From contig CAXTTL010000124.1 of assembly GCA_964247135.1 (NCBI GenBank), forward strand, positions 1 to 14,459: DNA of 14,459 nt. The letters are read 5' to 3'. The position numbers were made by a program, and so were the translations under genes. The stretch is from an uncultured Deinococcales bacterium (GTDB taxonomy: Bacteria > Deinococcota > Deinococci > Deinococcales > JAAFIG01). How positions within the stretch are numbered: the first letter of the stretch is position 1; every line of letters starts with the position of its first letter. The notes under the pieces are model-generated. The model ran no database searches. It was not told where the DNA came from and saw only the letters and a program-made list of their open reading frames with translations. Positions 690-8,155 of the stretch are shown in pieces.

Positions 690-1853
690 ATGAACAAAAT
701 TCTATTGATGGTCGGTTCAAGCCTCGCGCTTGCCACTGCGGTCATGACCTCCGATGTCAACGCCGCCCCGCGTCCTGACGCTCCACCGCTCGCGCTTCGC
801 GGTTCGCATTCGGTTGGGGTTCGCACCCTGCAAATTCTCGATGCCAGCCGCAAGCGTCCTCTCACGCTCGAGGTGTGGTATCCAGCCAAACTGGAAGCCA
901 ACCAAACCGAGAGCACCGTTTACAAAGCCACGATTGGCAGCACCAAATTTGATCTGCCAGGACAAGCGTTCAGAGATGCCAATCTAGAGGCGGGCAAATT
1001 CCCACTCGTCATCCTCTCGCACGGACAGGCAGGCTCGAGGTTTGTCATGACCTACTTGACCGAACACCTCGCCTCACAAGGTTTTGTGGTTGCCGCAATT
1101 GACCACACGGGCAGCACTTACGACGACATCACGCCTCCCGCTTATATCTCAAGCTTGGTGGATCGCCCATTGGACATGCTTTTTAGCATCAATGAGGTTG
1201 CCAAAGCCGTACCGACCAGCGACGGCAATAACGTTGCCCTGATGGGTTACAGCTACGGTGGTTATACCGCCTTGAACGCCGCCGGAATTGGTTTGGACAA
1301 AGCCAATTTGACCGATTACTGCAAAACCTCCAACAACGAAGGACCGTGTTTCGCCCTGCCGTACTTCGACAGTTTAACGCCAGCCCGAGGCTCGAGCACT
1401 GTCAAACCCGACCCTCGGGTCAAAGCCGTGTTTGTGATGTCTCCCTACGGCATCCCGTGGTTGAGCACCGAGCAATTCAAAAGTATGCGCGTGCCGTTGT
1501 TTGTTGGCGGCGGCGAAAACGATGACGTTGCCGTTTTTAAGCGCGATGCGCAACAAGCCTTCAACCTCTCAGGCTCGAGCAGCAAATACCTGTTGTCGCT
1601 GGCTTCGGCTTCGCACAACATTTTTACCAATAACCCACCAGAATCGGTCAGAAACAACTGGACGGATTACGAGCGTTGGTTTGAACCCGTCTGGGATCGT
1701 GAACGCGTGAACGACATTGCCAAGCATTTTGCCACCGCGTTCTTGAAGCAAAACCTCTTAAAAGACTCAAGCATGGATCAATATTTGACCAGCAAATTGA
1801 ACGGTTTCTTGCCCCGCACGACCATTGGCGTGAAGCTCGAGACTGGGAAGTAA
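690..1853 (+). CDS. Secreted alpha/beta hydrolase (predicted dienelactone hydrolase / PAF-acetylhydrolase-like), 387 aa
   Basis: Signal peptide MNKILLMVGSSLALATAV; family motifs LEVWYPA, FPLVILSHG, LASQGFVVAAIDH; nucleophile elbow GYSYGG; candidate Asp (GENDDVA) and His (ASHNIF). Confidence 0.9.
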   Translation: MNKILLMVGSSLALATAVMTSDVNAAPRPDAPPLALRGSHSVGVRTLQILDASRKRPLTLEVWYPAKLEANQTESTVYKATIGSTKFDLPGQAFRDANLEAGKFPLVILSHGQAGSRFVMTYLTEHLASQGFVVAAIDHTGSTYDDITPPAYISSLVDRPLDMLFSINEVAKAVPTSDGNNVALMGYSYGGYTALNAAGIGLDKANLTDYCKTSNNEGPCFALPYFDSLTPARGSSTVKPDPRVKAVFVMSPYGIPWLSTEQFKSMRVPLFVGGGENDDVAVFKRDAQQAFNLSGSSSKYLLSLASASHNIFTNNPPESVRNNWTDYERWFEPVWDRERVNDIAKHFATAFLKQNLLKDSSMDQYLTSKLNGFLPRTTIGVKLETGK

Positions 1854-1876
1854 ACACGAAGTAAAAAGCTGAGAGT

Positions 1877-1917
1877 AAACATCCCCACCTCGAGATGAGA
1901 TGGGGATGTTTGGTTTT
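1877..1917 (+). terminator. Intrinsic terminator of the hydrolase gene
   Basis: AAACATCCCCA (1877-1887) pairs with TGGGGATGTTT (1901-1911), followed by GGTTTT; a CTCGAG lies in the apical part. Confidence 0.75.
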
Positions 1918-1932
1918 GAATCGCACAAACTT

Positions 1933-2138
1933 AAGTTTTAACTGGGTTTGCTCTTGAAGGTTGAAATCTTGGACGAATCAAGTCGAAAATCCATCTCGAG
2001 AACATCAAGCCATGAAGCCATGTGGTCCAAGTTTCAACCGGTAGCAAGGTCTTGAAGGTTGAAATCTTGGACGAATCAAGTTGTTACTAGATTTCACAAA
2101 TTTCAGTTGTTAAGTCATGTGGTCCAAGTTTTAACCGG
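1933..2138. repeat. Non-coding dual-repeat array, period 97-98 nt
   Basis: X=TCTTGAAGGTTGAAATCTTGGACGAATCAAGT identical at 1952-1983 and 2050-2081; Y=AAG(C/T)CATGTGGTCCAAGTTT(C/T)AACCGG at 2015-2041 and 2112-2138 (25/27), partial Y at 1933-1945; unrelated 31- and 30-nt spacers between X and Y. Confidence 0.9.
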
Positions 2139-2146
2139 CAACACTG

Positions 2147-2176
2147 AAAACCGCCTCGAGAAATTCTCGAGGCGGT
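2147..2176 (-). terminator. Intrinsic terminator of the csp gene built from two CTCGAG arms
   Basis: ACCGCCTCGAGAA-A-TTCTCGAGGCGGT (2150-2176), ending in TTTT on the minus strand, 17 nt after the csp stop. Confidence 0.85.
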
Positions 2177-2193
2177 AGCGTGGTTGAGGTCAA

Positions 2194-2403
2194 TTAAAGA
2201 ACTGTAACGTTAACAGCCTGCGGACCTTTGCCGTTCTTGCCCTCTTCGCTCTCGAAGGTCACGCGTTGACCCTCTTCGAGGTTACGGTAGCCCGAACCCT
2301 TGATCGCCGAAAAGTGGACGAACAAATCTTTTCCACCCTCGTTTGGCGTGATGAACCCAAAGCCTTTTTCACCGTTGAACCACTTCACTGTACCTTCTGG
2401 CAT
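2194..2403 (-). CDS. cspA: Cold-shock protein, CspA family, 69 aa
   Basis: [18 protein letters not shown] (RNP1), DLFVHFSAI (RNP2), GPQAVNV; ATG at 2403 has GGAAAGG upstream, so the track start at 2460 is too far upstream. Confidence 0.97.
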
Positions 2404-2469
2404 TTGATGCCTTTCCGCACGAACTGCAAAAACAGCGTGCCCAGCCAACAAGACTGGCATTCCCTAACG

Positions 2470-2521
2470 TGTACCGTTCTGGAATGATTAAATTATAGCA
2501 CAAGAATTCTAAAACGGTACA
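2470..2521 (-). promoter_or_regulatory. csp promoter (extended -10 TGCTATAAT, TATAAT at 2492-2497) flanked by a 16-bp imperfect inverted repeat
   Basis: Perfect TATAAT with TGn extension gives an ~80-nt 5' UTR, as is typical of csp mRNAs; arms 2470-2485 and 2506-2521 match 14/16. Confidence 0.7.
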
Positions 2522-2622
2522 TTTAACTTTACTGAAGGTGGCAATAGTAGCGTCAGCACAAGAAGTTTTGAAATTCCTCGAGCTTTGGTAGCAGCAAATC
2601 TTGCGGCAATCTCGAGCCTCAA

Positions 2623-6757: not shown

Positions 6758-6985
6758 TTAGGTTTCAGATGTTTTGGTCTGGATGGTAGCGAGCGTGTAG
6801 AGGTAGCCCACAACCAGCAGCATCTCGAGCGCATACACGGCGCGTAAGGTCAGCAGGCGTGGACTTGCGCCAAAGCCGCCAACAGCATCCACAGCCAATG
6901 TACCGAGCACCAGCGCCATCAAAATCCAACCAGCCGTTTCTTGTCGTTTCAGAATAAACCGCTTGATCTGCGTCAATTCAATCAC
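6758..6985 (-). CDS. Small two-TM membrane protein, 75 aa, overlapping the rhodopsin stop
   Basis: GTG start overlaps the last 8 nt of the rhodopsin gene; hydrophobic segments GWILMALVLGTLAVDAVGG and AVYALEMLLVVGYLYTLATI; exactly fills the gap to the terminator. Confidence 0.65.
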   Translation of the reverse strand: MIELTQIKRFILKRQETAGWILMALVLGTLAVDAVGGFGASPRLLTLRAVYALEMLLVVGYLYTLATIQTKTSET

Positions 6986-7814
6986 CCGCCAATGCTGGGG
7001 TCAGTGCTTTGTCGGCGGCGGTTTTCTCGAGCGCAATGAAATAAATCAAAACACCGAAGCCCGCCTTGGCGATGATGTCCGCCAGGCTGTAACCAACTTG
7101 AAGTCCGACCACACCACTGGCGCTCAGACCACCAAACACGGCGGGCAAGAGGTATGCGAGCGGGTAAAAACCCCACGAGAAAATCAACAACAGTCGCAAG
7201 TTGCGAACCAAGACTTTGACATACTCGGGTTGACGATCCAAAGAGTTGCTCAGTTCGCTCCAGAGGACAAACAAAATGTAGACGAAGGGAATGGTGCTGA
7301 TTGTTCCCCAGACCAGACGCGTGGTGTTGTCGCTCGAGACTTCGCCTGGGTATCCGGTGGCGATCATCACCACGGCGGCAATCACCAAACGACCAATCAA
7401 ACCAGCCGAGATGTTACGTGCCAATGCCAGCACCGAGACTGCTTCGACAAGGAGCAGCGGCACGGTCAAAATCCAATCGGCGTAACGGTAGGCATCGTTG
7501 AACGGAACGCCGGTGGGGTTGTAAGCGCCGTTCACAAGGGCATACGATTCGTTCCAGGAGTTAAAAATTCGCACGTAATGGTAGCAGGCGACCGCCACCA
7601 CCAGCGCCGTGACCAGCATGGCGGGTCGGTATTTTTCGGCAAGTGACTGACGACCCAGCACAAAGAAGATAAAAGATGCACCCATTGTGGCGATGGTGAT
7701 TGAAAAAAGTTGGTAAACCAATCCAAACTGCCCAGAAGTCAATTGAATTCCTGCTGCGAATGAACTTGATCCAAACAAAACAAATACTGTCAATAACATC
7801 AGCCACTTTTTCAT
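6978..7814 (-). CDS. Microbial rhodopsin, xanthorhodopsin/Gloeobacter-rhodopsin clade, DTE outward proton pump, 278 aa with N-terminal signal peptide
   Basis: FNDAYRYADWILTVPLLLVE (DTE), helix B His in YHYVRIF, TGYPGE, WGTISTIPF, WGFYPLAY, retinal lysine in DIIAKAGFG; ATG at 7814 with GGAGGA SD at 7820-7825. Confidence 0.96.
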   Translation of the reverse strand: MKKWLMLLTVFVLFGSSSFAAGIQLTSGQFGLVYQLFSITIATMGASFIFFVLGRQSLAEKYRPAMLVTALVVAVACYHYVRIFNSWNESYALVNGAYNPTGVPFNDAYRYADWILTVPLLLVEAVSVLALARNISAGLIGRLVIAAVVMIATGYPGEVSSDNTTRLVWGTISTIPFVYILFVLWSELSNSLDRQPEYVKVLVRNLRLLLIFSWGFYPLAYLLPAVFGGLSASGVVGLQVGYSLADIIAKAGFGVLIYFIALEKTAADKALTPALAGD

Positions 7815-8155
7815 AATGATCCTCCGTGTCGTTACAAAAAATAGAAAGGTTTCAAGCATTGTAAAAAGGCTCGAGCAGTAAAAAATGATTTTTGCAAACA
7901 ACTTCTAAAGTTTATACAACTCAACCTTATACACGTGAAGTCTATTGCACACTCTAATTTCTGATTTTACTGCAATTGAATGGTAGCTCGAGATTCAATT
8001 CCTTGATCGAATTTGTATAACCTTTGGAAAATAGCTTTACTGCACAGCTTTTTACGGCAATGCTCGAGTTTAAGCAATCATGTTTTTTGGTTGACGAAGC
8101 CCGATTTGGCGCATCGTCGCATCGAGAATCCGGTACCAATTATTCCAAAGACTTG

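Follow-up and report, generated by a model that had tools for sequence, protein, structure and literature searches.

Two tandem stem-loop units between convergent hydrolase and csp genes: a probable member of a REPIN-like hairpin-repeat family in uncultured Deinococcales

The window, the whole stretch of 14,459 nucleotides analysed here, carries a two-unit hairpin array between two convergent genes, an alpha/beta-hydrolase gene on the + strand and the cold-shock protein gene csp on the − strand, each of which has a 3′ hairpin of its own (Table 1). The earlier note placed the array between two terminators, and a hairpin is indeed found on each side, although a simple scan for terminator-like sites lists sites only at about 1880–1905. 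The hairpin behind the hydrolase gene is probably its terminator; it also resembles the 5′ hairpin, named hairpin A (GTRCATCC...GGATGYAC), that accompanies many copies of the repeat family described below, and it may be homologous to it. The csp leader scores 70 bits against the cspA leader family RF01766, with a match that runs off the end of the searched stretch. Between window positions 2148–2460 and three relatives (L009, L010 and L011), the csp terminator and coding sequence are near-identical, as is, by eye, the start of the leader; the conservation of csp across the congeneric species compared is near-total even at silent sites, against just 86% for the adjoining hydrolase gene. The window also holds a bacteriorhodopsin-family gene at 6978–7901 on the − strand (Bac_rhodopsin, 148 bits), which is notable in a Deinococcales MAG. 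The hexamer CTCGAG is by far the commonest in the window (84 occurrences against 3.9 expected) and is abundant in the whole genome (33,925, or 6.7 per kb, against 1,371 expected); it occurs inside the loops and flanks of the hairpin repeats as well.

Table 1. Features in and around the hairpin array, in window coordinates
Feature	Position	Strand	Basis or remarks
alpha/beta-hydrolase gene, PETase/PAF-AH-like	690..1853	+	Pfam; syntenic in G002, G003, G005, G001
15-bp hairpin AAACATCCCC...GGGGATGTTT, then T-rich run	1877..1911	+	inverted-repeat scan; terminator-like-site scan
partial 3′ arm Y0 (includes 13-nt partial Y, 1933-1945)	1933..1948	+	repeat-family scan; alignments with relatives, which share Y0
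X1 (5′ stem arm 1959-1974)	1952..1983	+	repeat scan; R2 match 1956-2051, 62.7 bits
loop 1	1984..2014	+	fast-evolving; nearest to G002 and G005 loops (alignment)
Y1 arm (3′ stem arm 2025-2039)	2015..2041	+	repeat scan and pairing check
linker between units, 8 nt	2042..2049	+	
X2 (5′ stem arm 2057-2072)	2050..2081	+	R2 match 2054-2148, 61.8 bits
loop 2	2082..2111	+	best score against G002 loop; most identities with G003 loop
Y2 (3′ stem arm 2122-2136)	2112..2138	+	repeat scan
degenerate 3′ tail GCAACACTGAA	2139..2149	+	in place of family tail nGnAGATAC(TTA); assigned from alignments
csp terminator-type hairpin, 13-bp perfect stem and T-run	2150..2176	−	inverted-repeat scan; 99-100% identical in relatives
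cold-shock protein gene csp, cspA-type 5′ leader	2194..2403	−	CSD domain, 101.6 bits

The two copies of the X arm are identical at all 32 positions, and the two complete copies of Y agree at 25 of 27 (88% over 32 nt in the repeat scan). The stretches from X to Y measure 31 and 30 nt and the linkers 6 and 8 nt, so that the order given in the earlier note (partial Y, X, spacer, Y, X, spacer, Y) was re-derived with the same coordinates and lengths. The complementarity of X and Y was reproduced as well: GGTTGAAATCTTGGAC pairs with GTCCAAGTTTCAACC with one bulged base, and the X/Y stem of the window is 14–15 bp long. A scan of both strands of the window for promoters gave nothing convincing, with one 9/12 match against 0.8 expected. 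A candidate promoter in X (TTGAAA, 18 nt, GAAAAT) is not conserved, because its −10 part lies within the variable loop of the relatives. Nor is the element coding, since an ATG at the 5′ arm, though frequent in the family, is not universal and is in some copies followed at once by a stop codon (ATGTAA in L045). Among metatranscriptome contigs from four runs matched to positions 1400–2700, the near-identical ones span csp only (from 2179/2183 to 2441/2465), and the element is without an RNA contig; these are assembled contigs only, and the perfect 13-bp palindrome at 2150–2176 may break assembly.

The genus of the window, g1, is represented by six genomes, namely the MAG that contains the window (G000, 84% complete, 386 contigs) and G001–G005. 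A single X–loop–Y unit lies at the same hydrolase/csp spot in three of the other five genomes (G002, G003 and G005), and in all three it is preceded by the partial Y. Since the relatives have one unit and the window has two, the conserved unit has been tandemly duplicated in the window; Y0 is the leftover of an older, truncated unit. The loops, which the earlier note called unrelated spacers, share 17 of 35 positions, an agreement reached by only 9 of 1000 shuffles. The loop of unit 1 is the same as the G002 loop at 22 of 35 positions and that of unit 2 the same as the G003 loop at 23 of 39, values that no more than 2 of 1000 shuffles equalled in each case, so that each window loop aligns better with a relative's loop than with its neighbour. 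The two window loops are diverged homologues of one loop. They differ from each other as much as the loops of different species do; the duplication is old.

Arm and loop have evolved very differently at this site. In the g1 orthologous alignment, X has a mean pairwise identity of 0.97 with 30 of 32 columns invariant, whereas the loop has 0.54 (8 of 39) and the linker upstream of X 0.77 (24 of 40); the corresponding values are 0.86 (338 of 445) for the hydrolase coding sequence and 0.99 (253 of 256) for the csp terminator and coding sequence. The X arm is therefore conserved above the adjoining hydrolase coding sequence, and the loop drifts as other non-coding DNA does, suggesting that this copy is selectively kept in g1. 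A comparison of csp loci for empty sites, as proposed in the earlier note, found one in G001, where hydrolase and csp are 174 nt apart in a syntenic spacer that lacks the element and retains, if anything, a short piece of the 5′ part of X (possibly TTGAAGGATAAAAATCT). The 174 nt of the spacer itself (L146 147–320) are unrelated in sequence and contain another GC-rich hairpin, CTCCCTTCTCCCGC...GCGGGAGAAGGG. Since G001 manages without the element at the same site, any local function is dispensable. One family member is present at another locus of G001 (L095), which has no counterpart in the 84% complete G000 assembly. BLAST, covariance models and a relaxed regular expression run over the G000 genome found no second locus there. 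The earlier note had held that single-locus, untranscribed and unconserved arms would refute its reading; the repeat is indeed single-locus in G000, but it is conserved and has counterparts elsewhere, as the units in the relatives make plain.

The units of the window belong to a family of dispersed repeats. A first covariance model, R1, made from the five g1 units, gave weaker, repeated matches in two sister genera, and a second, R2, was made from 34 copies, with matches counted at E ≤ 0.01 among no more than 150 scored candidates per genome. R2 matches number at least 50 in G010 and at least 27 in G006 (genus g2), and at least 22 in G007 and at least 34 in the complete chromosome of G011 (genus g3). 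In g1 there are at least two in G000, at one locus, and at least one each in G001, G002, G003 and G005, with none among the candidates scored in G004. None was found among the candidates scored in the single genome of g4, and at least one weak match occurs among the eight genomes of g5. The search for X/Y copies in relatives and the covariance model that the earlier note had suggested were both productive: the stem recurs in sister genera within this Deinococcales family, with at least 22–50 copies in each g2 or g3 genome. An exact pattern matched 25 stretches in 185,579 species genomes (one per species), all titled Deinococcales MAGs, and also eight metagenome contigs; a metagenome scan for the g1-type X gave no match. 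On this distribution the hairpin family appears to be lineage-specific, confined to one uncultured family of Deinococcales.

The family design consists of a 5′ arm (A/T)(T/G)GTNNAAATCTTGGAC, a loop of 50–58 nt, a 3′ arm GTCCAAGTTTNNAC(T/C) and a tail of about nGnAGATAC, giving a unit of about 100 nt. The length classes are a long form of 79–87 nt overall and short forms of 31–49 nt, the latter with a loop of 5–25 nt. Most copies are single units, and tandem pairs also occur in L038 and in G011. The loops differ in every copy, with no two alike except between orthologues; because the loops of paralogues are unrelated, most copies are old. A separate repeat of 181 nt, about 95% identical between copies, is present in eight of the examined loci of G010 (L117–L127), several of them at contig ends. 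Its middle is occupied by the short form of the family hairpin, and there is also a terminal hairpin, TCTTGAGAA...TTCTCAAGA; the repeat looks like a recently active, classical MITE.

Base pairing between the arms is under constraint. For the 34-copy alignment, copies were picked by patterns that left NN positions free on each arm. Standard pairs make up 95.1% of the cells of the 15-pair stem, and both sides have changed in 6 of the 15 pairs. The third pair is UA in 15 copies, CG in 13, AU in 5 and GC in 1, and the fourth is AU in 23, GC in 6 and GU in 5. None of 500 shuffles reached the covariation score, although some of the 34 rows are orthologues, so that the cells are not all independent, and when the partner is slid by one to three columns as a control, pairing drops to 18–51%. 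The alignment contains seven G·U/U·G cells and no A·C cell, and two arm substitutions within g1 are compatible with pairing on the + strand but not on the − strand. These observations together suggest that the + strand folds, either as RNA or as single-stranded DNA. The loop shows no excess folding over shuffles (mean z −0.06, with z below −1 in 6 of 34 copies).

Many copies carry further structure around the stem. In about 14 of the 34 copies, a second covarying hairpin of 8 bp (hairpin A) lies 3–5 nt upstream, often after TAA, and in several copies the upstream stop codon abuts this 5′ hairpin directly. Across the DNA examined, the strict form of hairpin A is found only adjoining an element. 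In 6 of the 34 copies, a GGAGATAC-type tail lies 5–8 nt before the downstream start codon, where by its position it likely acts as a ribosome-binding site.

The neighbours of the copies are housekeeping genes unrelated to one another, including infB after ylxR, V-ATPase subunits, ABC permeases and binding proteins, cytochrome b, citrate synthase, alpha-amylase, CobW, SSB and others. Pfam matches in 35 of 55 flanking ORFs comprise 19 genes co-directional with the element and 16 in the opposite direction. On the G011 chromosome, 15 matches are on the + strand and 19 on the − strand among at least 34, with no obvious split if the origin is assumed to be near position 1. Six copies lie there within about 4 kb, in or next to a 25-gene tRNA array upstream of the TROVE (Rsr) gene, four of them on the strand opposite to the tRNAs.

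Copies are present in some genomes and absent from the same sites in relatives. The Ham1/citrate-synthase spacer contains an element in G011, whereas that of G007 has neither arm and is shorter by about 118 nt. Likewise, a tRNA-like gene upstream of rsr has an apical loop of 5–7 nt in three g5 genomes, and the same loop measures about 104 nt, element included, in both g3 genomes; the insert is placed in the loop and not to the base. These two sites and the hydrolase/csp spacer of G001, filled in one genome and empty in a relative, point to insertion or loss. Insertion boundaries were unreadable in the G011/G007 alignment of the Ham1/citrate-synthase spacer, where the intergenic sequence is too diverged. 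No consistent target-site duplication was seen, TA standing on both sides in 4 of 10 copies inspected by eye, and an outer TAAGT...ACTTA pair is present in a few copies only and is inconsistent between copies. The tRNA-like genes upstream of TROVE/Rsr in g2, g3 and g5 (L077–L084, and L130 at G011:C1:4059500–4068500) show the usual acceptor, D and T arms, encode CCA, carry long inserts that replace the anticodon arm, and in G011 adjoin the 25 ordinary tRNA genes. It is possible that these genes are Y-RNA-type partners of Rsr; in Rfam they have a weak tmRNA-like score only.

REPINs of Pseudomonas and enterobacteria are REP doublets mobilised by RAYT transposases, and the paper that describes them (Bertels and Rainey 2011, PMC3337134) depicts two inverted REPs around a less conserved spacer that is different in every copy and is itself hairpin-organised. 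The present family agrees with this anatomy in its paired inverted arms, in a spacer of preferred lengths that differs in sequence from copy to copy, in its extragenic position with tens of copies per genome (g2 and g3) and occasional tandem or higher-order clusters, and in vertical persistence at orthologous sites. It differs in that its spacer is unfolded and in that many copies have the extra covarying 5′ hairpin and the 3′ tail; moreover, G000 has one locus only, against at least 22–50 copies in the sister genera. In REP superfamilies the palindrome has GTAG or CGTC as a tetramer at one of its ends (PMC3733652), whereas the consensus here ends in (A/T)(T/G)GTNN... and ...NNAC(T/C), without either tetramer.

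A transposase partner was sought around genes for IS200-type Y1 transposases. These are present in 16 of the 19 genomes of the family, including genera without the repeat, and do not track it. No RAYT flanked by repeats was found at 12 Y1 loci of 37 matches, with flanks of about 1.5 kb wherever the contig was long enough; these loci contain only scattered single 9-nt arm-like words and no paired element. The nearest R2 match in G011, among the matches listed, is more than 25 kb from any of the four Y1 hits. Since neither a mobilising enzyme nor a flanking RAYT, a tetramer tag or a structured spacer was found, the family is called REPIN-like here and is not assigned to the REPIN/RAYT system. 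The REP/BIME- or MITE-like character proposed in the earlier note is therefore borne out at the level of the family, by copy number and by the REPIN anatomy, and fails for the flanking RAYT, the tag and the folded spacer. By this comparison, REPINs are the closest known kind, with a better fit than any other.

Copies of a MITE normally share their internal sequence and have target-site duplications, and the parent IS carries the same ends. Like the MITEs Correia, ERIC and RUP, the element is small, has terminal inverted repeats, lies in intergenic or intercistronic positions in both orientations, and can give the next gene a ribosome-binding site. Unlike them, it has inner sequences that show no relationship from copy to copy. 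No consistent duplication was seen, and no IS with the same ends is evident in G011. Exact arm cores in that genome number 16 for the 5′ arm and 16 for the 3′ arm, against 1 and 2 for the reversed control, and their coordinates put 13 of the 5′ cores and 10 of the 3′ cores inside R2 matches. Since most exact arm cores are inside compact R2 matches, no larger element with such ends is evident.

Two further proposals of the earlier note, a guide array acting in trans and an array of recombination sites, fare worse. In favour of a CRISPR-like array, with Y–linker–X as its palindromic repeat and the loops as acquired spacers, Y, linker and X can form a hairpin that has loops of constant length on either side, and tandem pairs occur elsewhere in the family. 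However, this reading fails because the loops are homologous between units and between species, orthologous loops diverging by point substitution as other non-coding DNA does; most copies are single units, G000 has no further copy, and no cas, integrase or transposase domain is present in the 12 largest ORFs of the window, in line with the earlier note, which saw no such gene in the window. A guide array is hardly credible on these grounds. In attC sites of integrons, R″–L″...L′–R′ boxes with 5′ RYYYAAC...GTTRRRY 3′ accompany cassette ORFs and intI. The hairpin recalls such sites in being imperfect, in keeping an extrahelical base and in conserving structure and not sequence at its variable centre, but the arm polarity is opposite (5′ GT...AC 3′). 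The copies are also dispersed, mostly as single units that lack cassette ORFs and stand between core genes such as those for V-ATPase, ABC permease and citrate synthase and infB. An attC-like or other site-specific recombination array is thus very improbable.

The main rival is a reading in which the element acts as host RNA. A structured RNA module encoded by the host, for example a hairpin for processing or stability, a tag that binds protein, or a small RNA, could have spread by duplication or recruitment instead of transposition, in which case the window would hold two tandem RNA units read from the + strand. The strong covariation of the stem, its strand-specific tolerance of wobble with G·U pairs that suit RNA, arms conserved above coding DNA at the orthologous locus, the covarying 5′ hairpin directly after an upstream stop codon and the tail before a start codon would all suit such a module. 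It is nevertheless unlikely, because orientation relative to neighbouring genes is near random, most copies at the tRNA array are antisense, neither strand has a convincing promoter and the window array lacks its own promoter and terminator, the unit is situated beyond the two flanking terminators, and copies are gained or lost between close relatives. Rfam gives the element no family match either: searches of Rfam 15 with window positions 1700–2600 (E up to 10), L019 (E up to 1) and 20 loci (gathering score) returned only the cspA leader, tRNA and chance-level matches. A more specific proposal is a genome-dispersed helix bound by Ro/Rsr, as in Y RNA. According to PMC4201824, bacterial Y RNA is encoded next to rsr, with an Rsr-binding motif GNCGAAN0-1G, and Ro60 contacts GGUCCGA, which GGUCCAAG in the 3′ arm loosely resembles; g3 has one long and one short copy just upstream of TROVE (Rsr), the long one inside the tRNA-like gene. 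This proposal fails, and has very little probability, because TROVE is present in 0 of 6 genomes of g1, a genus that has the element, and in 5 of 8 genomes of g5, where the element is almost absent, and because the motif is unconserved, its NN positions covarying freely. Moreover, G007 lacks the short hairpin that G011 has upstream of rsr, and no Rfam Y-RNA family scored. It is also conceivable, but quite unlikely, that the element is a host-selected address tag and not selfish DNA, with a 15-bp bulged stem for a protein of the lineage and an unstructured, copy-specific loop of about 55 nt. If so, dozens of loci, among them intercistronic positions of infB, V-ATPase and ABC-transporter operons and the tRNA array, would be under one control at the RNA or DNA level, and the copy adjoining csp would be its last retained member in g1.

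The window probably holds a retained, tandemly duplicated member of a REPIN-like hairpin-repeat family. The many intergenic copies in some genera, in both orientations, their presence and absence between relatives, the pairing arms and the variable spacer make the family REPIN-like. The array at 1933–2149 consists of two tandem stem-loop units of about 100 nt and an older truncated remnant. The family would be a REP/REPIN-type mobile element, small and non-autonomous, which lies between genes in either orientation and is gained or lost between close relatives. What defines the element would be its pair of inverted arms and their need to base-pair, with drift in the intervening sequence, and in the g1 hydrolase/csp copy the arms would be under purifying selection and the loops neutral. 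With selection on the arms and neutral loops, an old duplication of 97–98 nt mimics constant repeats with replaced spacers. This answers the objection of the earlier note that replacement of the spacers alone is not what a plain duplication produces. The element may move by a strand-specific hairpin mechanism, but old copies with intact arms fit selection on every copy as well as mobility. There is the possibility that the retained copy serves as a stable hairpin between convergent genes, either as a barrier or stabiliser at transcript ends or as a protein-binding site.

To our knowledge, REP/REPIN-type repeats have been studied almost only in Proteobacteria, and a full-text literature search found no account of such a repeat in relatives of Deinococcus; Deinococcales is a new lineage for elements of this type. 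A family comparable to REPINs is present in an uncultured, cold-freshwater branch of the order, without the REPIN-defining transposase partner at its flanks, and it offers unusually clean evidence for constraint on the pairing arms alone. For annotation, the family explains many conserved intergenic blocks in these MAGs, and the present case cautions that "repeat-spacer" patterns can come from old tandem duplication combined with selection on a stem. A genus in which the family has been lost save for one tightly held copy is a usable test of the benefit of such hairpins to their host.
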